Shown here one piece after another: positions 10,333 to 57,379 of a DNA stretch of 64,000 nucleotides (position 1 is the stretch's first letter; each line of letters starts with the position of its first letter). This stretch comes from Flavobacteriales bacterium (GTDB lineage: Bacteria; Bacteroidota; Bacteroidia; Palsa-965). The notes under the pieces are model-generated. The model was not told the DNA's origin. It saw nothing but the letters and a program-made list of their open reading frames with translations, and searched no databases. Position numbers and translations under genes: made by a program. The stretch spans positions 66,842-130,841 of the forward strand of contig JBEIPA010000015.1 of NCBI GenBank assembly GCA_040377305.1. Direction: 5' to 3'.

Positions 10333-11241
10333 ATGAAGAAACTGATACGTAAGCTCATTTTTACTTTACCTCCGGTGAAAAATCTGGAGAAGGAGCTTGC
10401 AAAGTATAAAACCTATCACGCGCCTGGTCATTACTACAGTCCGGTGCCTGACAAGGAATTCGTACGCGCTAATGCTGAACGGATTTTCGATCGCTCCGAT
10501 AAGCAACTGCATGGTATAAACATGCGTGCAAGTGAACAGTTCGATTTACTGAAACAGTTCCTTCCGTTTTATGCGGAGCATCCATTCACACCGAAGAAGA
10601 CCGAAGCCAATCGCTATTATCTGGAGAATGGCTTGTTTTCGTATTGCGACGGCATCTTTCTGCATTCCATGATTCGTCATCTGAAGCCGAAACGAATTAT
10701 TGAAGCGGGCTCTGGATTTTCTTCTGCAGTCATTCTTGACACAAACGAAAAGTATTTCGGCAACAAGATTGATGTGGTGCTGATTGAGCCATACACCGCA
10801 AGTCTCGATAAACTCACCGAAGGTCACAGCAAGCACTTTCGGATGGAGAAGAAATTTATTCAGGATGTAGACCTGAATATTTTCCGCACACTGGAGAAAG
10901 GTGATTTACTGTTCATTGATTCCACACACGTTTCAAAAGCGGGTAGTGATGTTAATCATATCCTTTTTGAAGTGTTGCCCATTCTTAATGAAGGTGTGTA
11001 TGTTCACTTTCATGATGTGTTCTGGCCGTTCGAATATCCGGAAGGATGGATCGAAAAAGGTTTTGCGTGGAATGAAGACTACATGCTGAGGTCGTTCCTG
11101 ATGTATAACGATCACTATGAAATTGTCTTCTTCAACAATTACATTGAACGGTTTCAGAAGGATTGGATTGGCAGTAACATGCCCGATATCCTGAAGAACG
11201 GTGGCGGCAGCTTATATCTCCGAAAAATTAAAGCCGGGTGA
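10333..11241 (+). CDS. Class I SAM-dependent methyltransferase (Methyltransf_24-like)
   Basis: IIEAGSGFSS, LFIDSTH, VHFHD, WNEDY. Confidence 0.88.
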   Translation: MKKLIRKLIFTLPPVKNLEKELAKYKTYHAPGHYYSPVPDKEFVRANAERIFDRSDKQLHGINMRASEQFDLLKQFLPFYAEHPFTPKKTEANRYYLENGLFSYCDGIFLHSMIRHLKPKRIIEAGSGFSSAVILDTNEKYFGNKIDVVLIEPYTASLDKLTEGHSKHFRMEKKFIQDVDLNIFRTLEKGDLLFIDSTHVSKAGSDVNHILFEVLPILNEGVYVHFHDVFWPFEYPEGWIEKGFAWNEDYMLRSFLMYNDHYEIVFFNNYIERFQKDWIGSNMPDILKNGGGSLYLRKIKAG

Positions 11242-12008
11242 GTGTTCCCTTGAATAATTCAGCAATCATTATTCAGGCACGCATGGGTTCGACCCGCATG
11301 CCAGGAAAAGTACTGGAGCCTTTTTACGCAGGTAAATCTATTCTTGATATCATTCTGCAAACACTCCGCACGAGTGTGCATCAACTACCTGTTGTATTGG
11401 CAACATCGGTGAGCAGTCTGGATGATCAACTGGAAGCATGGGCGCGCACGAATAACATCGGAGTGTTTCGCGGACATGAAACAAACGTCCTCAGCAGATT
11501 TACCGGATGTTGCGGGCAATTCGGTTTCGATTATGTAGTCCGCGTTTGTGCCGATAATCCATTTCTCGATGTTGATCTGCTGGATAAAATGGTCGCTGCA
11601 GGCATTGCGCATCAAGCCGATTACTGCAGTTACATGGCAGCAGATGATACACCTGCGATGAAGTCGCACCTTGGCATTTTTGCGGAGTGGGTAACAACTG
11701 CAGCACTGACAAAGGCGCAAACATTGACCGATGACCCGCTGTTTACTGAGCATGTTACCAATTTCATTTACGGAAATCCGGACCAATTCCGCCTTCATTG
11801 GCTTAAAGCGCCAGAGGTACTGTACAATCGCACGGACCTGCGTTTTACAATCGATACTCCGGAAGATTTTACCCTCATGCAGGAGCTTTACAGTCTTTTG
11901 GCAGAACGAGGCGTTCCGATTAACTTTATCAACCTGTTGACGCTTGTGGAAAGCGACACGCGGGCCTTACAGATCATGCAGAACCAAATTCGCAGATTCA
12001 CAAAATGA
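11238..12008 (+). CDS. CMP-nonulosonate synthetase / cytidylyltransferase (SpsF / CTP_transf_3; putative CMP-KDN synthetase)
   Basis: IIQARMGSTRMPGKV, RVCADNP, EHVT, RFTIDTPED; directly upstream of the synthase. Confidence 0.85.
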   Translation: MSVPLNNSAIIIQARMGSTRMPGKVLEPFYAGKSILDIILQTLRTSVHQLPVVLATSVSSLDDQLEAWARTNNIGVFRGHETNVLSRFTGCCGQFGFDYVVRVCADNPFLDVDLLDKMVAAGIAHQADYCSYMAADDTPAMKSHLGIFAEWVTTAALTKAQTLTDDPLFTEHVTNFIYGNPDQFRLHWLKAPEVLYNRTDLRFTIDTPEDFTLMQELYSLLAERGVPINFINLLTLVESDTRALQIMQNQIRRFTK

Positions 12009-13054
12009 GTGCAGGGAAAAGTATTTACGTGATCGGAGAGATCGGACAGAACCACAATGGATCTGTTGATATCGCAAAATTGATTGTGGATGCTGCTGCG
12101 CGTCCGATCGAAGAAAATCTATTTGGCTTAAAGTTAAAGCCAATGAATGCAGTGAAGCTCACACGTCGTGATCTGAATGAAGAACTTTCCAAATCACAAA
12201 TGTCGCGCCCTTATACCAGTGCACATTCATTTGGAAAAACCTACGGCGAACACCGGGAGTTTCTGGAACTGAATGATGAGGAGCATCTGGAGGTGTACAA
12301 GCACGCGAAATTTCACGGACTGGATTTTGTAGAAACACTTTGCGCGCCCGGTTGTTTATCATTACTCAAGCTTTTCACACCCGAGTATCTGAAAGTTGCC
12401 AGTCGCGATCTTACGAATCTTCCTTTGCTCAGCGCAATGGCAGAGACGAAGATTCCAATGATACTTTCCACTGGAATGGCCGGACAATCGCAGCTAAACG
12501 ACGCGTTGGAAGTAATTACAAAATACCATTCCGGAATTTCTATTCTGCATTGTGTTTCACAGTATCCGACACAACCGCAGAATGTAAACCTGCTTACGAT
12601 TTCATGGCTGCAGAAAAATTACGCGCAGTACATGATCGGATATTCTGATCACACCATCGGTATTTCCACTCCGGTGGCAGCTGCCGCAATGGGAGCACGC
12701 ATTATTGAGAAGCACATTACGCTTGATCGCCGAATGAAGGGAACAGATCAGGCAGGTTCACTCGGTCCAGATGGAATAAACCGACTGATGCGTGATTTGC
12801 GTGTGCTCGAAATGTCGTGGGGAAGAGAAGAGATGTTCATTGAGCCCGGCGTTGAAGAAGCCCGTGTAAAACTGGAACGCTCGATTGCAACCAAGCGCGA
12901 CATGAAGAAGGGTGAACGCATCAGCGAGGCCGACATCCACATGCTTTCCCCGGGCGATGGATACAAGTGGAGTGAACGTGCTGCGGTTGTCGGTAAAACG
13001 CTGAGCAACGATATCGCTTGTGATGAAATTATTTATCCATCTTCATTATCATAA
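12005..13054 (+). CDS. NeuB/SpsE-family nonulosonate synthase with SAF domain (putative KDN-9-phosphate synthase)
   Basis: GEIGQNHNGS, KVASRD, LSTGM, LHCVSQYP, GYSDHTIG, IEKHIT, C-terminal SPGDG; resembles B. thetaiotaomicron BT1714 as recalled. Confidence 0.9.
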   Translation: MSAGKSIYVIGEIGQNHNGSVDIAKLIVDAAARPIEENLFGLKLKPMNAVKLTRRDLNEELSKSQMSRPYTSAHSFGKTYGEHREFLELNDEEHLEVYKHAKFHGLDFVETLCAPGCLSLLKLFTPEYLKVASRDLTNLPLLSAMAETKIPMILSTGMAGQSQLNDALEVITKYHSGISILHCVSQYPTQPQNVNLLTISWLQKNYAQYMIGYSDHTIGISTPVAAAAMGARIIEKHITLDRRMKGTDQAGSLGPDGINRLMRDLRVLEMSWGREEMFIEPGVEEARVKLERSIATKRDMKKGERISEADIHMLSPGDGYKWSERAAVVGKTLSNDIACDEIIYPSSLS

Positions 13055-13066
13055 CAGATCCGAAGG

Positions 13067-13816
13067 ATGAAAATAGAAACTAAAAGTATCGCATCGCAGG
13101 AAGAGCAGGATAGACGTGCACACTTTGTACAGAACTATGTATCAAATCCTATTCCTGAGAATGAAAAGCTGAGTAACCTCGGCTTATTCGTCAAACGACA
13201 AGAGCTAACGAAGACAGTGATGTTTACTGATCTGTACCGGAAATTTCTTCCTGTACACGGTGTGATTATGGAATTCGGAGTTCGTTGGGGACAAAATCTC
13301 GTAACATTAACCAATCTTCGTGGGATTCTGGAGCCGTACAATTACAGCCGAAAGATTATTGGCTTCGATACATTTTCAGGATTTCCTTCTGTGCATAAGA
13401 ATGATGGTTCTCATGAAGTTATCAAAGAGGGAGCTTTTACGGTAACGGATGGTTATGAAAATTATCTCGATAAGATTCTTGATTATCATGAGAAGGAATC
13501 TCCGTTGTCTCATATCCGCAAACACGAGTTGGTAAAAGGTGATGCAAGTGTGATGCTGGAGAAATACCTGAAGGATCATCCTGAAACAATTGTTGCATTT
13601 GCATGGTTCGATTTCGATATCTACGAACCTACGAAAAAGTGTCTGGAGCTTCTTAAGCCTCATCTTGTGAAAGGGAGTGTGCTTGGATTCGACGAGTTGC
13701 TTGATCCGCAATTTCCCGGAGAAACAGTGGCGGTACGTGAAGTCCTTGGGATGCAGAACATCCGTCTGGAACGAATGCCTTATGGAGGAATTCAATCATT
13801 TGCCGTTCTGGAATAA
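13067..13816 (+). CDS. TylF/MycF-family sugar O-methyltransferase
   Basis: IMEFGVRWG, GFDTFSGFP, LVKGD, FDFDIYEPT, GFDE. Confidence 0.8.
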   Translation: MKIETKSIASQEEQDRRAHFVQNYVSNPIPENEKLSNLGLFVKRQELTKTVMFTDLYRKFLPVHGVIMEFGVRWGQNLVTLTNLRGILEPYNYSRKIIGFDTFSGFPSVHKNDGSHEVIKEGAFTVTDGYENYLDKILDYHEKESPLSHIRKHELVKGDASVMLEKYLKDHPETIVAFAWFDFDIYEPTKKCLELLKPHLVKGSVLGFDELLDPQFPGETVAVREVLGMQNIRLERMPYGGIQSFAVLE

Positions 13817-13833: not shown

Positions 13834-15111
13834 ATGACGAGAAACCCAGGTGAAGAAATGCATGACTTCCTACGGAAATTATTTCCTGTTTGTCGCAGCA
13901 TAACAGGGAATGGCGTCCGCGAAACTTTAAAACAGATTTCAGAATTTCTCCCTCTCCGGATTTCTGAAGTGCCGAGTGGTACTGTAGCTTACGATTGGGT
14001 CGTTCCAAACGAATGGAATATCATTGAAGCATGGATCGAGAATGAAGATGGAGTGAGAATTGTTGACTTCGCGAATAACAATCTTCATGTTGTGGGCTAT
14101 TCAATACCGGTCGATCGTGAAATTCCACTCGAGGAACTGCTGGCTCGGATACATTCCCTCCCCGAGATGCCTGATGCGATTCCGTACGTTACATCGTATT
14201 ATAAGGAAACATGGGGCTTTTGTATGACTCACCGTCAGAGGTCAGCGATGCGTCCCGGAAATTATCGCGTTAAGATCAATAGCACACTGGCTCCTGGTAC
14301 ACTTACGTATGGCGAGCTTTTCATCCGGGGCAAATCAGAAAAGGAAATTTTCATTTCAACATACATCTGCCATCCTTCGATGGCGAACAATGAATTGTCG
14401 GGGCCCGTGGTGTCTGCATGGCTCGCACGCTGGCTTTCCGGAAGAGAAAATTATTACAGCTACCGTTTCATCTTTATACCTGAAACGATTGGGGCTATCG
14501 TTTATCTCTCACGTAACCTGGCTCAACTGCGCAGTAATATGCTGGCGGGCTTTGTTCTGTCGTGTGTGGGTGATGAGCGTGCGTGGTCGCTTGTGTCGAG
14601 CAGATACGCGAACACGTATGCAGATAAACTGGCGAAGAGAGTGGCGGATAAAATGCAGTTGAATCCGATCGTGTATTCTTACCTCGAACGTGGTAGCGAT
14701 GAACGTCAGTTTGGTGCTCCGGGTGTTGATTTGCCATTGGTCACTTTCTGCAGAAGTAAATTCGGAGAGTATCCTGAATATCATACTTCGGCCGACGATC
14801 TTTCACTGGTCACTGCGGCTGGATTGAACGGATCATTGGAATACCTGAAAAATATCGTGCTCGAAGCAGAAGAGAACAGGTTATACCGTGTAACAACGCT
14901 TGGTGAACCTCAGCTTGGAAAGCGGGGAATGTATCCCACAACGAGCACGCGCGACTCCATTCATCAGATCAAGGACTTGCGGAACATCATTGCCTACGCA
15001 GACGGATTGAATGATGTTCACACGATCAGCGCGATTACTTCAGTGCCTTACGAACAGGTGAAGCATACGCTGCAGCGTTTAGTAGATGCGGGAATCGCTG
15101 AAGAACTATAA
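13834..15111 (+). CDS. DUF4910/DUF2172 aminopeptidase-like polysaccharide biosynthesis protein with C-terminal wHTH
   Basis: RSITGNGVRETL, PYVTSYY, YICHPSMANNELSG, GSDERQ, YPEYHTSAD, GEPQLGKRGMYPT. Confidence 0.9.
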   Translation: MTRNPGEEMHDFLRKLFPVCRSITGNGVRETLKQISEFLPLRISEVPSGTVAYDWVVPNEWNIIEAWIENEDGVRIVDFANNNLHVVGYSIPVDREIPLEELLARIHSLPEMPDAIPYVTSYYKETWGFCMTHRQRSAMRPGNYRVKINSTLAPGTLTYGELFIRGKSEKEIFISTYICHPSMANNELSGPVVSAWLARWLSGRENYYSYRFIFIPETIGAIVYLSRNLAQLRSNMLAGFVLSCVGDERAWSLVSSRYANTYADKLAKRVADKMQLNPIVYSYLERGSDERQFGAPGVDLPLVTFCRSKFGEYPEYHTSADDLSLVTAAGLNGSLEYLKNIVLEAEENRLYRVTTLGEPQLGKRGMYPTTSTRDSIHQIKDLRNIIAYADGLNDVHTISAITSVPYEQVKHTLQRLVDAGIAEEL

Positions 15112-15123
15112 ACTGTACCAGCC

Positions 15124-16393
<1,270 letters not shown>

Positions 16394-17707
16394 ATGTATC
16401 GGATCGTGAGGTTTTATCTTCGGTTGATCTCCAAAGCAGATCGTACCGGTAACAATGAAGCCCTCGCTGGATGGAGTCTCGTATACAAAAAAAGTTACCG
16501 GAATCCTTCTCAATCACGCGTGATTGGCGTGTTGAGTTCGTGGATGAAAACATTCGGCAGAACACTTTTTGCGAAAACGAAAATGCACCAGGTTGACGGT
16601 GGCAATGATGGGTTTCTCGTTTGGGACAACCGCAACGTAAAAGAGATTCGAGTAGCGCATATCAGATCGAACAATATTTCGGTGCCCGGAATTTTTATCG
16701 CCCGAAATGAAATAGCAATCACCGGATTTGTTCAGCGACTGAACGCCCTGTTTTCCTTGTTCTGGTTTCTACCGGGTTTAACTTTCCGATCACTGTTCAG
16801 CGCAAATCCAGCGGGCATAACACTGTTACCGTTCGAATGGTACGAAGCGAGTGCTTTAATGCAAATAGTGAAGACAAAGAATATCCGTGCGATTTATTTT
16901 TATTGTCCGTATGAAGTTGATGCGAACGCTCTATTTCTTTTGTTGCATGAACAGGGTGTGAAGGTCACTAAGATTCCATCTCCGAACCTTTTGTCCATTG
17001 GAAATTCTGAGTTGCTCGCAGATGAGTTGATATTGTCCAGCCCATGTCAGTTAGATGAATTGGAACTGCATAAATCAACCTTGAGGACGGCAAGCAGTGC
17101 GCGGTGGTTGCCCGAGCAGTTCATTCAATATGCTCAGCATTATAAAGTGCGTAGTAAACCGGCATCGAAGACAATCGGTTACTATTCTCACGGCAGCTGG
17201 TTGCGCAATGCGGATGTTTCCGACAATGTGGGTGATGTAAAGGCTGAATTGGCGCTCTTACCTGTTCTTGCAAAGTTCCTGCAGTCGCATTCCGATTTTT
17301 CATGTACGGTATTTCTTCACCCCAAGGAGAAAAAGACGGAAATGTCAAAAGTGAACGCCTATTATGCTGGACTGTTCGGAGATGGTCGCGTTAGTTTTGC
17401 GGCTGCCGATAAATCGGGTGCAGAACAATTTGATACTGTTGACATCGGAGTTGGTGCGCTGAGTACCATACTTTTTGAACGGCTTTTCCTCGGCAACAAA
17501 ACCATTTTCTATCCGGCTGGAGTCACGATTTTTCCTGTGCCCGGTTCTGCTGTATCGAAAATCTGTGCGAACACTGAAATTGAATTGGAACAGCTAATTT
17601 TGCAGTGTGCGGGTGTAACTGCAAGCGAATTCAGAAAGCTGAATGACCTTGATAAATATACTTTGCACGAATGGTTTCCGGAAACACATTATGGCCGACA
17701 AGATTGA
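16394..17707 (+). CDS. Hypothetical protein, candidate nonulosonate (KDN) glycosyltransferase, GT-B-like C-terminal half
   Basis: Long coupled ORF; VFLHPKE and LSTILFE resemble the HP and S(S/T) motifs of bacterial sialyltransferases. The CDS is secure, the function is inferred. Confidence 0.55.
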   Translation: MYRIVRFYLRLISKADRTGNNEALAGWSLVYKKSYRNPSQSRVIGVLSSWMKTFGRTLFAKTKMHQVDGGNDGFLVWDNRNVKEIRVAHIRSNNISVPGIFIARNEIAITGFVQRLNALFSLFWFLPGLTFRSLFSANPAGITLLPFEWYEASALMQIVKTKNIRAIYFYCPYEVDANALFLLLHEQGVKVTKIPSPNLLSIGNSELLADELILSSPCQLDELELHKSTLRTASSARWLPEQFIQYAQHYKVRSKPASKTIGYYSHGSWLRNADVSDNVGDVKAELALLPVLAKFLQSHSDFSCTVFLHPKEKKTEMSKVNAYYAGLFGDGRVSFAAADKSGAEQFDTVDIGVGALSTILFERLFLGNKTIFYPAGVTIFPVPGSAVSKICANTEIELEQLILQCAGVTASEFRKLNDLDKYTLHEWFPETHYGRQD

Positions 17708-18671
17708 GTATTCCGATCACGAGCATTTTGCAAAGCAGTATTCCGGTTTTGCGAAATGGAAATTCCTTTGGAAAGTAAAAAGAGGATTCCGTGCTGCAGA
17801 TGCGCGGCTCAAAGAAACACTTGCGAAAAAGGAATGCTATTACGGTCCGTTCAAAGGTGAGTTCGGGCATTTTCTCGCGCACACGCTACCGTTTCTTGCA
17901 TGGCTGCATCGTCAGGGAGTAAAGATTCATTACTGTGGAATGGAAATACATAAACCATTTCTCGTAGATGAAACCGGATCATCGATCATCCACGATTATT
18001 TTCCGCTACGTGATTTCTTTGCAGAAGTATCTCCATCATGCAACAAGACTGTCGCACCCGCAGATGTTGAAGCCGAGATTCAGAAATGGAAAACACAGGC
18101 CCGCGATTCCGGTTTGCCTTTCTATGAAATTGACGAAGAGTTTTACTACTGGTTTGTGCATCGCAGTTGGACAATGATTGGACCGTATTCACACGGTTAC
18201 CGTCTGGATAAAGCGTACTGGAACAAGCCCAAGGAAAATAGTGTGTGCGTGTTTCCAAGAACAAAAGGTGCACGTTTCTCGAAGAACAATGGTGGGCCGT
18301 GGGATTACGCGGACCTTGTAAAAAAACTTTCTCCGCATTTCGACAAGGTTTATGTATGCGGACATCCTTCTCAGGTGCTCGCCATGCAGCCGGAAGGAAA
18401 TATTGAAATGTGTGTGACTGCCGATAACGCAGTCATTCTCGAAAAGTGTTCGCGGAGTCGCTTGATTATTACACAACACTCGGGAGTAAACAACCTTGGT
18501 GAATACACGGACACTCCGGTTCTGATCATTTACAACGGGGAACCACCGATAGGAAGCATGCAGAACACGCAACGTTTCCGTCCTTTTCTGACCGGCCTGG
18601 GCAAAAAAGAGCTTCACCCATTGGCATTTGCTTTTTCTGAGAAGGAAATCATCGATTTTGTGTGCAAATGA
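17691..18671 (+). CDS. Hypothetical protein, divergent GT9 (heptosyltransferase)-like
   Basis: N-terminal GEFGH...LP; C-terminal SRLIITQHSGVNNLGEYTDTPVLIIY resembles the GT9 xDSGxxHLA...P segment; start at ATG 17691. Confidence 0.55.
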   Translation: MADKIEYSDHEHFAKQYSGFAKWKFLWKVKRGFRAADARLKETLAKKECYYGPFKGEFGHFLAHTLPFLAWLHRQGVKIHYCGMEIHKPFLVDETGSSIIHDYFPLRDFFAEVSPSCNKTVAPADVEAEIQKWKTQARDSGLPFYEIDEEFYYWFVHRSWTMIGPYSHGYRLDKAYWNKPKENSVCVFPRTKGARFSKNNGGPWDYADLVKKLSPHFDKVYVCGHPSQVLAMQPEGNIEMCVTADNAVILEKCSRSRLIITQHSGVNNLGEYTDTPVLIIYNGEPPIGSMQNTQRFRPFLTGLGKKELHPLAFAFSEKEIIDFVCK

Positions 18672-18739
18672 TGTGTTGACGCGTACGCTTAAATTGCCCG
18701 ATGCGTAAGCGAAAATGGCTTAAAAAACTCAGAAAAGCG

Positions 18740-18747
18740 TATATTTG
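18740..18747 (+). promoter_or_regulatory. Bacteroidota -7 promoter element TATATTTG
   Basis: Exact TAnnTTTG match 5 nt before ATG 18753 in an 81-nt gap. Confidence 0.6.
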
Positions 18748-18752
18748 AGGCT

Positions 18753-19640
18753 ATGCCTTCAAATACGGAACTAACCCGTGATTTTATTGAGAAGTGTGCG
18801 GGGCTACGCGTTGCGGTTATCGGTGAAACCATTACCGACGAGTTCATTGATGTGGTTTATGAAGGCCATTCCATGAAGTCTTTTTGCCCTGTTTTTCGTT
18901 TTGCGGAAAATGGCGCAACACAGGTACAGAGTGGTGGTGCAGCAGCAATTGCAGGTCACCTTCGCGATTTTGTAAAATCAGTTGAGCTTATTTCCAACAA
19001 CAGCAGCGACATTGTTAAGACGCGTTACATCGATGCGTCTGATAAAAAGAAGCACGTTGAAATAAACCGGTTTAACAAAGCGAACTTCAAAGACATTACC
19101 GTTAACACCAATGACTTTGATGTTGTAATTGTTGCAGACTTTGGACATGGATTTTGCGATAAACTTAAGATCAACGATGGTTTTCATCTCATGACACAAA
19201 CGAACTCGAACAATTTCGGATTCAATCGTATGTCAAAGTGGAAACCTCTTCGCAAGAAAAGCGTAACGCTGGATCTAAGAGAAGCAAGTCTTCAGATGAA
19301 CCGCCCGATAAAAGGAGAAGTAGATAGCGACATTCGTGCGTTGTATAATTACGAGATCAATTCACAGCACATGTTTGTGACATTGGGTAGCAGCGGATCT
19401 TTGCATGCCGATGAGAATACGATTGCACGACAGAAATCATTCAAGAGTACCATTGTAGACACAATCGGAGCAGGAGACACGTACTTTTCATTCTGTTGCC
19501 TGCAAGCACATCTACAGGAGAATATTACCGAAATGATTGTTCCTTCTCTGGCAGCCAGCCTTTCAACAACCTGGTTGTGCAATGAGAAATCAGTTTCCAA
19601 AGAAATGTTACTGGACTATGCAGCTAGAGCTATACAATAA
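18753..19640 (+). CDS. PfkB-family sugar kinase, HldE/RfaE domain I-like
   Basis: VAVIGETITDEF, GGAAAIA, VADFGHG, VTLGSSG, DTIGAGDT. Confidence 0.82.
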   Translation: MPSNTELTRDFIEKCAGLRVAVIGETITDEFIDVVYEGHSMKSFCPVFRFAENGATQVQSGGAAAIAGHLRDFVKSVELISNNSSDIVKTRYIDASDKKKHVEINRFNKANFKDITVNTNDFDVVIVADFGHGFCDKLKINDGFHLMTQTNSNNFGFNRMSKWKPLRKKSVTLDLREASLQMNRPIKGEVDSDIRALYNYEINSQHMFVTLGSSGSLHADENTIARQKSFKSTIVDTIGAGDTYFSFCCLQAHLQENITEMIVPSLAASLSTTWLCNEKSVSKEMLLDYAARAIQ

Positions 19641-20136
19641 ACATTTCACCGCGTGGTTCAGCGATCCCGCAATTCAAAAAGGAATTGTTGATTCTCTCGC
19701 TTTGCTGAAAGGTCGCAAAAGAATATTTTTTCTGGGCAATGGCGGATCCAATTCCATTTCATCGCACATGATGGAGGATTACGGAAAGATCGCCGGTTTT
19801 CAGACGTATGCATTTTCAGATGCTTCACTTATAACGTGCTACGCGAACGATTACGGCTATGACAACGCAATGGCCGAATGGCTGAAGCTGCATTTCCAGG
19901 AAGGCGATGTACTTATTGTCACCAGCAGTTCAGGGGAATCGAAAAATATTGTGAATGCAGCTTTAGTTGCAAAGCAGAAAATGGGAGCCATGATTACGCT
20001 TAGCGGATTTGGAGAGGGAAATACACTCAGTACAATGGGCGATGTTAACTTTTACCTAAACGCACGCAACTACGGCATGGTGGAATGTTTTCACCAGGTG
20101 ATCCTCCACGTAATTCTCGATTCCATCAATGGCTGA
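19618..20136 (+). CDS. gmhA: SIS-domain phosphoheptose isomerase-like protein
   Basis: FLGNGGS, TCYANDYGY, SSSGESKNI, YGMVECFH; start at ATG 19618. Confidence 0.8.
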   Translation: MQLELYNKHFTAWFSDPAIQKGIVDSLALLKGRKRIFFLGNGGSNSISSHMMEDYGKIAGFQTYAFSDASLITCYANDYGYDNAMAEWLKLHFQEGDVLIVTSSSGESKNIVNAALVAKQKMGAMITLSGFGEGNTLSTMGDVNFYLNARNYGMVECFHQVILHVILDSING

Positions 20137-21043
20137 TCGCGCGCTGATAACCGGGGTCGCGGGATTTATCGGATCCAACCTGCTCGATTTTCTCCTGGAA
20201 CATACCGACTGGGAAATTGATGGAGTAGATAATCTTTCAACCGGCTCGCAGCAGAACATCGCGCAGCATACAGACAATTCGCGATTTACTTTTTTCACGG
20301 GAGATCTTACACAGATCACTTCGCTGAAAAAGTACAAATACGTTTTTCATCTCGCTGCACTTCCGCGCATTCAGCCAAGTTTTGAATTAGTGGGGGAACA
20401 TATCACACATAACGTGCTGAAAGCCGCTCACTTGTTCGAAGTCATGATCCGGGAAAACTATTTTCCGCGAATTATCTATAGCGGTTCGAGTGCGATTTAT
20501 GGTACACCGGAGCAGATTCCTACCAGCGAAACAGAGAAAGTCGATTGCCTGAGTCCTTATGCATTTCAGAAATATGAAGTAGAGCGTTATCTGGAGCTAC
20601 TGGCAACACGGTATCCGTTCGATTACGTGACGCTTCGATATTTTAATCCGTATGGACCGCGCAGTTTTAATCCGGCAAACTCATTCAACGCATACAGCAG
20701 TGTTGTTGGAATTTTTCTGAACCGTCATAAATCAAATCAACCCTTACTTGTAACCGGAGATGGCAGCCAGCAGCGCGATTTCATTCACGTTGGAGATCTG
20801 GCACGCGCCAATTACAGCGCAGCAATTCACAAGGGCAAACTGAATACAGCATTCAATATCGGTTTTGGGAGTACGTTAAGTGTGCTCGAGCTTGCAAAGA
20901 AGATTTCGGATAAGTACGAATTTATCCCGAAGCGTGAAGGTGAAGCGGATATCACCTTCGCCGATATTACCAAAGCGAAGTCCGTACTCGGCTGGCAACC
21001 TATTCACACGCTGGATTCCTACCTGGAAAATGAACGCGCATGA
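20129..21043 (+). CDS. NAD-dependent epimerase/dehydratase
   Basis: TGVAGFIGS, FHLAA, YAFQK, LRYFNPYG, RDFIHV. Confidence 0.92.
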   Translation: MADRALITGVAGFIGSNLLDFLLEHTDWEIDGVDNLSTGSQQNIAQHTDNSRFTFFTGDLTQITSLKKYKYVFHLAALPRIQPSFELVGEHITHNVLKAAHLFEVMIRENYFPRIIYSGSSAIYGTPEQIPTSETEKVDCLSPYAFQKYEVERYLELLATRYPFDYVTLRYFNPYGPRSFNPANSFNAYSSVVGIFLNRHKSNQPLLVTGDGSQQRDFIHVGDLARANYSAAIHKGKLNTAFNIGFGSTLSVLELAKKISDKYEFIPKREGEADITFADITKAKSVLGWQPIHTLDSYLENERA

Positions 21044-21450
21044 AAAAGGGATTTGCATGCGGAGTGTTTGATCTTTTTCACGCAGGACATGTGCTGATGC
21101 TGAAGGAGTGCAAAGAACATTGCGATTATCTTGTTCTGGCATTAAACAAGGCTGAGAACATTGATGGAACAATAAATCCAGGGAAACGTTCACCCGTTTA
21201 TTCACTGGAGGAACGAAAAATGATTTTGGAATCCTGCCGTTTTGTTGACGAAGTAGTAGTTTATAATTCGGAAGAAGAGCTTCTATCCATCTTACAGAAA
21301 GGCAATTTCGACATTCGCTTTCTCGGCGATGATTATCGCGGAAGACCAATTACCGGCGAAGACCTGAATATCGCCATACACTACACAGACCGTTCTCACG
21401 GACTTTCCACAACAAGATTTGTTGACCGAATCAGGAAGGAGGGTTTATGA
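21040..21450 (+). CDS. Stand-alone nucleotidyltransferase (TagD / RfaE domain II family)
   Basis: GVFDLFHAGH (HxGH), ERxxIL, FVDEV, GDDY, RSHGLSTT. Confidence 0.88.
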   Translation: MKKGFACGVFDLFHAGHVLMLKECKEHCDYLVLALNKAENIDGTINPGKRSPVYSLEERKMILESCRFVDEVVVYNSEEELLSILQKGNFDIRFLGDDYRGRPITGEDLNIAIHYTDRSHGLSTTRFVDRIRKEGL

Positions 21451-44814: not shown

Positions 44815-45270
44815 ATGTCCAATCCTCCACCATTTCCACCACCGAATACACCACCACCACCTCCGGGCGGACCTAATAATCCGTATGGCAATAATCCCTA
44901 CGGTCAGAATCCGTACGGTAATAATCCATACAACAATCCGTATCAGCAGAATCCTATGGGCATGCAGCGGGATGTGCCTAACGCTACAGCGATTCTTGTG
45001 CTGGGGATTGTTTCAATCGTTGGTTGTTTCTGCTACGGTATCATTGGCTTGGGTTGCGGCATCGCAGCACTGATTATGGCAAGCAAAGCTATGCAGGAGT
45101 ATAATCAGAATCCTAGCATGTTTAAGGTTTCCTCTTATAACAACGCGAAGGCAGGACGAATTTGTGCAATTATTGGAACAATTATTTCAGGTTTAACATC
45201 CCTGTGGTGGATCTGCCTGGTGGTTTTAGGAATTGGTGGATCTTATTATAGCAATCCATATAACTGGTAA
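44815..45270 (+). CDS. CCC-motif / DUF4190-like membrane protein with P/N/Y-rich N-terminus
   Basis: PNATAILVLGIVSIVGCFCYGIIG...Y..NP......NAKAGRICAIIG; NNPYG repeats. Confidence 0.85.
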   Translation: MSNPPPFPPPNTPPPPPGGPNNPYGNNPYGQNPYGNNPYNNPYQQNPMGMQRDVPNATAILVLGIVSIVGCFCYGIIGLGCGIAALIMASKAMQEYNQNPSMFKVSSYNNAKAGRICAIIGTIISGLTSLWWICLVVLGIGGSYYSNPYNW

Positions 45271-45594: not shown

Positions 45595-46050
45595 ATGGAA
45601 AACACAAACCCACCAATGCCACCTCCACCACCTCCGACCGGCAATCAGAATCCAAATTATCAACAGCAGAACCCAAATTATCAGCAGCAGAATCCAAACT
45701 TTCAGCAGCAACAAGGCTATCAGCAGAATTATCAGCAGATGCCTCCCGGTGGATACCAACAGCAGCCGTTTGGTACACAAATGGATCATCCAAAGGCAAG
45801 CACCATTCAAACACTTGGAATCGTTGGATTAATTCTTACTTTCCTCTTGGGGATTGTAGGCTTGATTCTGAACATTATTGCTCTCTCAATGAGCGGTGGA
45901 GTACTTTCTGAAATTGATAACAATCCTGGCCGTTACTCAGATGTGTCGAGAAGAAAAGTGAAAAGCGGTCGTACCTGCGCAATCATTGGTCTAAGTATTC
46001 AGGCTTTCGTAGTGGTCGTACTTGTATTAGTTTTACTTGCGAACGGTTAG
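45595..46050 (+). CDS. CCC-motif / DUF4190-like membrane protein with Q/N/Y-rich N-terminus
   Basis: QQQNPNY repeats; LGIVGL...NNPGRY...KSGRTCAIIG. Confidence 0.8.
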   Translation: MENTNPPMPPPPPPTGNQNPNYQQQNPNYQQQNPNFQQQQGYQQNYQQMPPGGYQQQPFGTQMDHPKASTIQTLGIVGLILTFLLGIVGLILNIIALSMSGGVLSEIDNNPGRYSDVSRRKVKSGRTCAIIGLSIQAFVVVVLVLVLLANG

Positions 46051-54483: not shown

Positions 54484-55764
54484 ATGGACAGAATAAATGC
54501 ACCGGAATTCAAGCAAGTAACGCAAGTTGATTTGCAGAAGGCGACCGATCACAAACTGGATAATGGTATGCCATTGTACATTGTGAACTCGGGCACGCAG
54601 GAAGTGATGAAGATTGAATTCATTTTCAATGCGGGTATGCGCAACCGTGATTATCCAATGGTGGCGTCAACCGTAAACGACATGCTCGACGAAGGAACCA
54701 CTTCCCGTAACGCCATGGATCTCGCTGAGGAACTCGATTTTTATGGAGCGTTTATCGAGTCGGAGGTTACGCACGACCACGCGATTTTTACGTTGTGGAC
54801 ACTGAACAAGTACCTGGATGAGTCGCTCGCGATCGTGAAAGACATCTTGTTCAATGCTGCATTTCCTGAAATGGAGCTTGGCGTTTATCTCGACAACCGA
54901 AAGCAGAAGTATATCGTCGATTCCGAAAAAGTTTCTACGCTCGCGCGACGTCGGTTTTCAGAATTGTTATTCGGAGAGAAACACGCCTACGGAATTTCGA
55001 CAAAGCCAGAAGACTTTACGCGAATTACGCGCGGAGAGCTTCAGCATTTTCACACGGACTTCTACCACGCGGGTAATGGATGTATTCTCGCTGCGGGAAA
55101 CATTCCGGATACGCTGCAAGGAAAACTGAATCAGTATTTCGGTGGAGCAGAGTGGAAGAAGTCTTCCGGAATTATTACCACCGTTGGATCGGCAGTGTCA
55201 AATACGCAAAGGGAGCATCTGGTAAAGAAAGACGGAGCTATTCAATCTGCGGTGCGTGTTGGAAGAATTCTATTCAATCGTGAACACGCCGATTATCCTG
55301 CCATGCAAGTATTGAATTGTGTGCTCGGCGGCTACTTTGGTTCACGACTCATGGCAAACATACGGGAAGATAAAGGCTACACGTACGGAATTGGTTCTGG
55401 GCTCGCTTCTATGGTCGATGGCGGCTACTTCTACATTTCAACAGAAGTTGGCGTCGATGTTACTGATGCAGCATTGAAAGAAACGTATTTCGAAATCGAG
55501 CGCCTGCAAAATGATTTAGTGACTGCCGATGAGTTGAGCCTCGTTCGCAATTATATGACCGGTGTTTTTCTGCGCAGTACGGACGGACCCTTTGCAATGG
55601 CCGATCGCAAACGTGCTTTGATCGGATACAATCTTGGTTACGATTATTACGATCGATATCTCGAAACGGTTCGTACTGTTTCCGCGAATGAACTGCGGGA
55701 TCTGGCGCAAAAGTATCTGCAAAAGAAAGACCTTATTGAATTGGTTGCTGGAGACAGGAAGTGA
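54484..55764 (+). CDS. M16B peptidase, non-catalytic partner subunit
   Basis: No HxxEH; EGT...LDFYGA; LGGYFGSRLMANIREDKGYTYG (R/Y pair); start at ATG 54484. Confidence 0.9.
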   Translation: MDRINAPEFKQVTQVDLQKATDHKLDNGMPLYIVNSGTQEVMKIEFIFNAGMRNRDYPMVASTVNDMLDEGTTSRNAMDLAEELDFYGAFIESEVTHDHAIFTLWTLNKYLDESLAIVKDILFNAAFPEMELGVYLDNRKQKYIVDSEKVSTLARRRFSELLFGEKHAYGISTKPEDFTRITRGELQHFHTDFYHAGNGCILAAGNIPDTLQGKLNQYFGGAEWKKSSGIITTVGSAVSNTQREHLVKKDGAIQSAVRVGRILFNREHADYPAMQVLNCVLGGYFGSRLMANIREDKGYTYGIGSGLASMVDGGYFYISTEVGVDVTDAALKETYFEIERLQNDLVTADELSLVRNYMTGVFLRSTDGPFAMADRKRALIGYNLGYDYYDRYLETVRTVSANELRDLAQKYLQKKDLIELVAGDRK

Positions 55765-55789
55765 GACTATTGCGGCAATAAGAAAGAAC

Positions 55790-57379
55790 ATGGCAGTAAC
55801 GCCCAAACAAATTGAGAAATTCCGCTCATTCATTCTGAATTGTGATGCAGCATCCTGCAATCTGTTTCTGGAGAAAGCCGAGACCTTTCAGTTCGCCAAT
55901 GTAAAATCACTTGTTGCATTTCATGACGCGTTGTTATTACTTGAGGCTTATCCCTCTTCCGGGGAACTTTATGATCGTGCGAACAATCTGCTTCGGAATT
56001 TCGAAGTGCTTACGAAACGTTTTCTTCGGAAGAATAAATCGGCCCTCGCAAAACTGATCAATTCCGGGCTGAAGGGTACGGAAGCGCAAGGATCATTCAC
56101 TTATCCATTGCTTAAAAAGCTGTGTAAGTTTTCACCGGGGTCGGTTTACCTGCATTCGTTTGATGAGCAAGGAAAGCCTTTAAGTGAAGTGCTCAAACAT
56201 TTTCTGCCTAAAACAGAATTCGAAATACTTGAGGCCGGCTACAACAATGATGAATTACTGAACGAGCTTTTCGGTAAACAGAATCACCTGATTTCATTAA
56301 TCAATTCGTTAGGAGCTATTGGGTTGCCCGAGTCACTTCGCGATGCAATGTTTGATGAGCTCAAAGCATTTGCAGGAATTCGTTTCGATGGAAAAATTCC
56401 GGAACGATCTGTTGCACGTGGAATAGCTTCGCAGATTTTTATTCATGAAGAAGTTCAGAAGAAAGCCGATCCGCTGGAAGTAGTTAATCGCGAATTACCT
56501 GTTCCACTTAATCTTTCACTCGAACAGGAGAAAAAACTGGTGATTGATTGCGCTGCCATGCTTGCGTCGCTCAACCGTGAAACAGATCCGATTTCCTTGT
56601 GTGATGAACGTGGTGTTACTTATTTTGAGTTGGAACGCGGAGTGAGTGTTGCCTTGTTCAGCATGAAGGCGAACAGAAGGTTGCCGTTGGATTCATACGT
56701 TGGTTATGTCTTATTTAAGAATGGAGTACCTCATGCGTATGGCGGATCCTGGCTGTATGGAAACCGGGCATTGTTCGGGATCAACATCTTTGAACCATTT
56801 CGCGGTGGTGAATCTTCATTGACCCTATTGCAATTGCTTCGCGTGTATCGTCAGTATTTTGGAGTTTCTGCATTCAGTGTAGAACCCTATCAATATGGAA
56901 AGGATAACCCGGAAGGAATCGAGTCAGGCGCATACTGGTTCTATTACAAAATGGGATTCCGCTCCGACGATCATAAGCTCGCAACGTTGGCTGAGAGTGA
57001 ATCGGGGAAGATGAGGAAATCAAAATCTTACCGTAGTTCTGCTTCCACTTTGAAGAAGTTTACGGAGTCACACATAACGTGGAAGATTGACCATGTAAAA
57101 GTGTTGCCAAATCCGGCGGAGGTAAGTCGCGCTACTTCGGAATTCATCCGCAAACATTACAACGGTAATCGGGAAAAATGCATTCTTGATCTTTTGCAGT
57201 TTCACGGATTGCAGCGCGGGGATGTTCCGGATGAATTTCTCGTGACTTTCTTGTGGCAGAAAAGTCCGGTTGTTTCGAGACTGTATGTGAATATGGTGAA
57301 ACAACTTGCGGCTGCAAAGCTGACAAATGAGCGACAATACAACCAGATTTTACTTCACTTGTACGCTGAAATTCAATAA
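55790..57379 (+). CDS. Hypothetical protein with a possible GNAT-like C-terminal region
   Basis: Long ORF, probable ATG 55790; motif-dense block KNGVPHAYGG, GINIFEPFRGGES, PYQYG..NPEGIESGAYWFYYKMGFR. Confidence 0.65.
   Translation: MAVTPKQIEKFRSFILNCDAASCNLFLEKAETFQFANVKSLVAFHDALLLLEAYPSSGELYDRANNLLRNFEVLTKRFLRKNKSALAKLINSGLKGTEAQGSFTYPLLKKLCKFSPGSVYLHSFDEQGKPLSEVLKHFLPKTEFEILEAGYNNDELLNELFGKQNHLISLINSLGAIGLPESLRDAMFDELKAFAGIRFDGKIPERSVARGIASQIFIHEEVQKKADPLEVVNRELPVPLNLSLEQEKKLVIDCAAMLASLNRETDPISLCDERGVTYFELERGVSVALFSMKANRRLPLDSYVGYVLFKNGVPHAYGGSWLYGNRALFGINIFEPFRGGESSLTLLQLLRVYRQYFGVSAFSVEPYQYGKDNPEGIESGAYWFYYKMGFRSDDHKLATLAESESGKMRKSKSYRSSASTLKKFTESHITWKIDHVKVLPNPAEVSRATSEFIRKHYNGNREKCILDLLQFHGLQRGDVPDEFLVTFLWQKSPVVSRLYVNMVKQLAAAKLTNERQYNQILLHLYAEIQ

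Follow-up and report, generated by a model that had tools for sequence, protein, structure and literature searches.

A candidate CMP-KDN transferase from an unnamed GT-B protein family of Bacteroidota

A glycan cluster from a Flavobacteriales bacterium, contained in the 64,000-nucleotide stretch of DNA analyzed here (the window), encodes a 437-residue protein that we propose, at a probability of roughly 0.7, to transfer KDN or a modified KDN from a CMP donor onto the surface glycan of the cluster. That the donor is a CMP-ulosonate of one kind or another we consider highly probable. The initial annotation had suggested a CMP-KDN-dependent transferase from the nucleotide sequence, and this reading is supported: the predicted fold is GT-B, homologues are mostly linked to ulosonate synthesis, and the gene immediately upstream clears the cut-off of 180 bits of the KDN-9-P phosphatase model NF058599 with a score of 248.8. 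The literature searched, outside of which lie most subscription papers and supplements, described neither the family nor any bacterial enzyme dedicated to KDN transfer. New families of HP-motif ulosonate transferases appear regularly (GT118, GT140), so that enzymes of this general kind are already known. The family would nevertheless supply several hundred candidate KDN transferases, each with an evident donor, and a KDN-selective transferase, if that is what it proves to be, would be a useful chemoenzymatic tool.

The KDN cassette and its surroundings

The genes discussed below, all on the forward strand, are as follows.

11238..12008, +, cytidylyltransferase (CTP_transf_3; PF02348, E 2e-23), putative CMP-KDN synthetase
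12005..13054, +, NeuB-family synthase with SAF domain (PF03102; below the NeuB_NnaB and PseI cut-offs), putative KDN-9-P synthase
13067..13816, +, TylF-like putative O-methyltransferase (weak Pfam matches below cut-off; in 13/17 full KDN cassettes)
13834..15867, +, genes for a DUF4910 peptidase-like protein and an AAC(3)-type acyltransferase, an insertion in the query cassette (Pfam scan)
15881..16393, +, KDN-9-phosphate phosphatase, HAD type (NF058599, 248.8 bits; best PDB match 3e81, E 1e-59)
16394..17707, +, candidate CMP-KDN transferase, 437-aa GT-B protein (ORF, predicted fold, homologue alignment)
17691..18671, +, GT9-like protein, 326 aa, downstream (Atlas cluster named GT9, score 0.99)

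The 437-aa ORF is intact. Its ATG begins on the base directly after the phosphatase stop codon (TAG, 16391-16393), as had been stated, and its TGA lies in a 17-base overlap with the next gene, whose likely start is the ATG at 17691. The surrounding glycan cluster is co-oriented from the start of the window to about 31.5 kb, and GC content is flat, at 42-48%, over the whole KDN cassette.

That the pathway makes KDN is supported by the NF058599 score of the phosphatase, whose best matches are BT-type structures. The synthase is the sole clear NeuB of the genome. Bacterial synthesis of KDN is established. In Bacteroides thetaiotaomicron the route runs from mannose-6-phosphate via KDN-9-phosphate, according to the accessible text of PMC6200933 and PMC9000132, and the trio BT1713-BT1715 described for that species likewise joins synthase, phosphatase and CMP-synthetase; the query cassette differs from the pathway so described in adding the TylF-like methyltransferase, DUF4910 and AAC(3)-like genes. 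By analogy with this route, the query NeuB would condense mannose-6-P with PEP to KDN-9-P, the phosphatase would convert KDN-9-P to KDN, and the cytidylyltransferase would yield CMP-KDN, so that the sugar transferred would be KDN, either unmodified or bearing an O-methyl group or another modification. No transferase for the B. thetaiotaomicron pathway was found in the accessible portions of the literature searched.

The TylF-like gene, 58-80% conserved, sits between synthase and phosphatase in the 13 of 17 KDN cassettes that have it, and its product may make methylated KDN. The DUF4910 and AAC(3) pair is absent from between the TylF-like and phosphatase genes in those 13 related cassettes. Judging from ORF starts, seemingly the same pair precedes an HP-motif protein in an unrelated KDN cluster (L083:11818-13871, genome G261), where it adjoins an amino-acid adenylation gene; the pair suggests acyl or aminoacyl modification of the glycan.

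Behind the GT9-like gene lie genes for a PfkB kinase, a SIS isomerase, an epimerase and a nucleotidyltransferase (18753-21450), which likely serve the GT9-like protein. The whole of 17691-21450 resembles a heptose-type module, with all genes below curated cut-offs. The small cytidylyltransferase at its end (21040-21450, 136 aa) scores about equally on the TagD and RfaE-II models, below the cut-off of both.

No sialyltransferase was recognized among the window ORFs scanned, in agreement with the initial annotation. The genome, 99.99% complete, likewise gave no match indicating another ulosonate transferase for PF07388, PF05159, PF04464, PF01973 or TIGR04396; searches with PF07922, PF11477, PF06002 and NF046086 also found none, in a setting where these four gave no positive-control match, as was true for PF07922 across 201 genomes, again without a hit. 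Elsewhere in the window, neighboring 151-aa ORFs at 44815-45270 and 45595-46050 include one PF07666 match, in the first only, and a 581-aa ORF at 55634-57379 has no Pfam match at E<=1e-6.

Distribution of the family and its linkage to KDN genes

The ORF had been called an orphan, which is correct as to annotation, there being none, and incorrect as to relatives, which are many. Searches with the query came up empty in Pfam at E<=0.1 and in NCBIfam at E<=0.01 and gave nothing significant among PDB sequences, and family profiles likewise found nothing significant in any of the three. A word search yielded 53 related proteins among 7998 candidates scored, every one unnamed or hypothetical, and a repeat of the word-index search, this time with a profile of 142 sequences, led to no relative with an annotation. 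At E<=1e-3, profile search recovered 605 cluster representatives, 367 of which also passed E<=1e-30; this describes an unnamed family of Bacteroidota with about 600 clusters at 50% identity; GTDB carriers with names are nearly all Bacteroidota MAGs. The family is rare in the phylum, with three credible matches in 401 sampled genomes. A fourth match, 40 residues long and containing a stop, was dismissed.

Homologues had been expected always to neighbor NeuB-family genes. This holds for most of 36 GTDB loci and not for every one: 17 have a KDN-type NeuB and phosphatase, and 12 have instead an adjacent NeuB of a different, short type, so that a NeuB lies within 1.3 kb in all 29. The remaining loci comprise two that show, at the contig edge, a phosphatase in one case and a NeuB fragment in the other, one cut inside the gene, and four, belonging to one clade, with no NeuB within at least 7.9 kb. 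Of all 35 genomes of the order, 11 carry the family and 10 the KDN phosphatase, and in 10/10 the family gene stands directly behind the phosphatase; these counts and those of the loci are not independent, because the phosphatase-bearing genomes all belong to a single genus and are in part the source of the GTDB loci as well. Only one of the 25 genomes of the order without the phosphatase (one of these negatives, G013, is an unpublished genome) has the family, although some PF03102 match is found in all 35. In that eleventh genome, G032, the family gene follows a third type of NeuB.

On a 40-row tree, four changes are needed for the KDN context, at least three of them imposed by well-supported splits, and five for the short-NeuB context. 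KDN and short-NeuB members are sisters twice, and the KDN context occupies at least three separate branches. The link has therefore outlasted repeated swaps of the synthase.

The same variety of contexts bears on an alternative that we regard as unlikely, in which the protein uses a CMP-ulosonate donor other than CMP-KDN, such as housekeeping CMP-Kdo or another nine-carbon sugar, and KDN is added elsewhere, for example by the GT9-like neighbor. The family gene is accompanied by any of three NeuB types or by none, the genome has a separate KdsC-like phosphatase, the product of the query NeuB is itself a prediction, and the GT9-like gene stands behind all 10 KDN cassettes of the order. However, that gene, found in 16 of the 35 genomes, is present in six that lack a KDN cassette and escaped detection in 10 of 18 KDN-type GTDB loci (short contigs among them), whereas the family tracks the KDN phosphatase 10/10. 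The GT9-like ORF as KDN transferase was ranked lower, being the less specific by those six genomes.

Predicted fold, conserved motifs and active site

AlphaFold2 produced a GT-B model with two Rossmann domains (pLDDT 93.6, pTM 0.91), in which the N-domain is full size, with six strands, and aligns with canonical GT-B chains over 245-307 residues. The leading structural matches are GT-B proteins throughout, so that model and structure searches agree on the fold that the initial annotation had made the touchstone of its proposal. The GT38 polysialyltransferase 5wc6 tied for first (Z 13.4, rmsd 4.2, 270 aligned) along with UDP-sugar enzymes and epimerases, among them UDP-GlcNAc 2-epimerases and PseG, many GT-B matches tying within Z 1. 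Chains of GT52, GT80, GT99, GT107 and GT140 were absent from the matches listed in any fold search (for GT52 and GT80, the 50 matches listed), which is not evidence of difference. The best Foldseek matches are GT41/GT4 UDP- or GDP-sugar enzymes. For the C-domain folded alone, the best VIA matches are again GT41/GT4 enzymes (5djs, Z 12.4, rmsd 3.1, 153 aligned); TagF 3l7i (Z 9.9) and 8qoy (Z 10.1) also appear among the 50 C-domain matches listed, and no sialyltransferase does. The comparison with sialyltransferase folds thus returned GT-B and a GT38 structure tied for first but did not single out CMP-dependent enzymes, and the C-domain fold was dropped as a pointer to them. As modeled, the fold confirms GT-B and says nothing on the donor, because UDP-sugar enzymes, epimerases and GT41/GT4 enzymes match equally or best.

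Conserved residues were examined in an alignment of 178 homologues taken from 188 proteins with a length filter of 380-480 aa. The principal elements are these.

16910..16927, +, Y173-E174-x-D176-x-N178, loop behind an N-domain strand (E in 142/178, D176 in 160/178, N178 in 99%), candidate general base
17171..17206, +, TIGYYSHGSWLR, first strand of the C-domain, with loop (near-invariant S265, W269 and R271)
17318..17329, +, H309-P310-x-E312, HP motif where the second C-domain strand ends (178/178; strand 303-307 in the model), predicted CMP contact
17462..17482, +, S357-T358-I359-x-x-E362-R363, helix start (alignment; helix 358-365 in the model), predicted phosphate and ribose contacts

H309, P310, E312 and R363 are invariant. 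Position 357 is Ser or Thr in all 178 sequences, 358 is Thr or Ser in 173, and 362 is Glu or Asp in all; S357, E362, E222, E285, S265, W269, R271 and S196 are each 97-99% conserved among the full-length members. By this measure of conservation, the four stretches that had first drawn attention to the ORF, TIGYYS (260-265), VFLHPKE (306-312), GALSTILFE (354-362) and LGNKTIFY (366-373), are present beyond chance. The loose pattern HP-x42-50-[ST][ST]xxx[DE] is found in 17 of the genome's 2169 ORFs of at least 300 aa, and the 437-aa ORF is its sole carrier among 32 ORFs of the cluster.

The roles predicted for these residues rest on analogy with two enzymes of known CMP site. As given in the accessible part of PMC5517516, the GT38 enzyme MhPST binds the CMP phosphate through H291, S339 and T340, its base being E153 of a D/E-D/E-G motif; in KrkA (GT140), according to the accessible part of PMC12887879, CMP is bound by H227-P228, S271, S272, V273 and E276, a QxxxD motif supplies the nucleophile, and a YE pair acts as base, as is proposed also for KpsS1 (GT118). 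Because of the correspondence with MhPST H291 and KrkA H227-P228, the HP motif is predicted to contact the CMP phosphate or cytosine, and because of that with KrkA S271/S272/V273/E276, S357 and T358 are the predicted phosphate-binding pair and E362 the predicted ribose-binding glutamate.

Neither known type is matched in full. The query resembles MhPST (5WC6) in its GT-B fold, HP motif and an S/T pair 48 residues past the His, the spacing of H291-S339 being the same as that of the query, but differs from GT38, GT52 and GT80 in lacking D/E-D/E-G, the ribose Glu 16-17 residues ahead of the Ser, and a Pfam match. No [DE][DE]G is conserved in the 178 sequences, the best column (20/178) falling in a C-domain loop and not being present in the query; in a low-probability alignment, serine 196 occupies the D/E-D/E-G slot. 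With GT99, GT107, GT140 and GT118 the query shares a CMP site of the form HP...S-S/T-x-x-x-E in the same order and spacing, with E362 at S+5 like KrkA E276. Its Y-E pair lies about 20 residues ahead of the end of the next N-domain strand, comparable to the base E102 of KrkA: Y173-E174 is 22 residues ahead of S196, and E102 is 20 ahead of W122, so that E174 or D176 is the candidate base by position. In contrast to these retaining families, the query has no QxxxD nucleophile; behind the first C-domain strand stands S-H-G-S-W instead, and QxxxD reaches at most 15/178 at any column. Moreover, the N-terminal Rossmann domain is reduced and displaced in GT99, GT107 and GT140 and full size in the query model. 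The K/R of (K/R)xHP is replaced by F/Y. In its mixture of motifs the family is intermediate between sialyltransferases, which invert, and Kdo transferases, which retain, and it would thereby bear on the divergence of both mechanisms.

In the proposed mechanism, the C-domain would hold CMP via H309, S357, T358 and E362. The acceptor hydroxyl would lose its proton to a carboxylate of the N-domain (E174 or D176, alternatively E222), and H309 would stabilize the leaving CMP. An inverting single displacement giving an alpha-ketoside is the likelier course, because there is no QxxxD nucleophile motif. Position 203 is Gly in the query and His in most members. Trp occupies this column in L019, L024, L027, L028 and L053, which are all five members found to lack a KDN-type or short NeuB, and the position is possibly one of donor specificity.

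The nearest relatives are found among uncharacterized or nonulosonate-linked HP/ST proteins. In hhalign comparisons, whose target sets are small (1-21 sequences) and whose E-values are pairwise, the family profile gave probabilities of 91.9% with a BFO_1060-like set, 84.7% with BFO_1060 members and 60-65% with weak PF05159 members, HP aligning on HP and ST on ST. The set for another KDN-cluster HP protein gave 12.7%, those for KpsC (3.2%), KpsS (0.1%) and the GT38-like singletons less than 4%, and nine control sets of GT4, WecB, GT9 and GT28 type at most 1.1%. Among 732 ORFs of the examined loci scored against the profile, the best non-members belong to the BFO_1060 family or are HP/ST proteins related to it (E 8e-6 to 2e-4); GT4 and GT2 proteins, though many, do no better than E 0.4.

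Like the query family, the BFO_1060 family (NF046086) comprises Bacteroidota proteins of about 440 aa with a GT-B fold, adjoining CMP-nonulosonate genes, and its C-domain HP and ST...E...G can be aligned with motifs in register over 176 columns. NF046086 is weakly matched by 6/53 and 21/93 family members (the latter at E<=0.1) but not by the query; the best member (E 2.8e-6) is far below the 200-bit cut-off, and the similarity is mostly in the C-domain. Three BFO_1060 members compared have S-E-G where the query family has P-S-P/x, and the donor context of BFO_1060 and the Tannerella proteins is Pse or Leg, whereas that of the query family is KDN. The Tannerella forsythia proteins Tanf_01245 and TFUB4_00887 are Pse and Leg transferases reported to have D/E-D/E-G, and BFO_1060 is grouped with these genes; knocking them out strips the O-glycan of Pse or Leg (accessible text of PMC5420450). 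The uncharacterized surface-carbohydrate proteins of the LA_1612 family (TIGR04441) and TIGR04396 show weak likeness over the HP-to-ST stretch: the query matches TIGR04441 at E 0.082, as do 5/53 and 7/93 members (best 2e-5), far below cut-off, with an Atlas score of 0.96. A KpsS-like cluster is also an Atlas neighbor (0.96). PF07388, PF07922 and PF11477 matched 0/53 and 0/93 members at E<=0.1.

Kinship with GT38, GT52 and GT80, as the initial annotation saw it, thus extends to the GT-B fold, HP motif and S/T pair; the nearest families are instead BFO_1060, LA_1612 and KpsS-like HP/ST proteins. The 437-aa protein would act in the manner of a bacterial sialyltransferase, but on the features tested it fails membership in the families compared, GT38/52/80, GT99/107/118/140, BFO_1060 and TagF.

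The structural matches invite a reading as a GT41- or GT4-like GT-B transferase of the common sort, which would use a nucleotide-diphospho-sugar to make the acceptor residue of KDN, and by which the linkage would be explained. The S/T-T-x-x-x-E helix start is indeed a general feature of nucleotide binding in GT-B enzymes, and GT41 and GT4 enzymes are the best C-domain matches. We nonetheless consider this very improbable: HP is invariant, the GT4, WecB and GT28-type sets stay at or below 1.1% against 85-92% for the HP/ST sets, no GT4 or GT41 Pfam match occurs in 53 or 93 members, and the genome would be left without a candidate KDN transferase.

Both HP and an SS-type site are common also to TagF-like enzymes. 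There is accordingly a slim chance that the protein is a TagF/TagB-like CDP-polyol phosphotransferase served by the cytidylyltransferase at 21040-21450, for which the near-equal TagD and RfaE-II scores leave room and two TagF-type structures among the C-domain matches speak. A caution of the same kind is Bacillus subtilis SpsB, which has DEG and HP motifs yet is dispensable for the transfer of Leg (accessible text of PMC7439481). Against it, PF04464 matches neither the genome nor any family member, in a search whose positive control matched in 3/14, and that cytidylyltransferase was detected in only 5/36 loci. A GT-B non-transferase such as a PseG- or NeuC-like nucleotide-sugar hydrolase or epimerase, suggested by the tied structures and by weak matches of a few members to PseG models, is similarly remote, since the KDN route from mannose-6-P, as accessibly described, has no such step and hhalign gives at most 0.3% with WecB and GT28/PseG-like sets.

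Short NeuB proteins and HP/ST proteins of related clusters

A conserved NeuB that lacks the SAF domain and is about 230 aa long directly adjoins the family gene in several loci, for example L009:8869-9564, and also in L010-L012, L014-L017, L020, L021, L031, L033, L054 and L055. The copies compared are 55-95% identical and keep SDH and EKH motifs. None of five short-NeuB genomes tested has a KDN phosphatase over the cut-off. It is conceivable, if doubtful, that the short protein, which replaces KDN synthase and phosphatase beside close relatives of the query, makes KDN from free mannose in a single step.

That every Bacteroidota KDN cluster is served by this family was considered and rejected, seven other genomes of the 401 having the phosphatase without the family. 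Four of those seven clusters were examined, and each has a different HP/ST protein of 457-533 aa instead, two directly behind the phosphatase. These unannotated GT-B-like proteins (L080:7280-8767, L081:6409-7779, L082:9086-10591 and L083:13878-15476) belong to other families and are likewise candidates for transferring KDN. A second HP/ST family without a name, weakly BFO_1060-like and with proteins of 460-490 aa, occurs in the same clusters as the query family (L085:1348-2730, L021:2983-4383, L013:5445-6902); L013 and L021 each have two NeuB genes and two second-family transferases. At L035:9620-10902, a homologue in two frames, from a frameshift or an assembly error, adjoins a 247-aa NeuB-like ORF and a KDN cassette. 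Finally, a ThiF-rhodanese gene stands beside the family gene in L009, L010, L014, L016, L019, L024, L027 and L028 (in L010 and L028 as judged from ORF size), accompanied in L009 by a JAB-domain gene and a PLP enzyme; it possibly reflects sulfur transfer, or simply a conserved site of chromosomal insertion.
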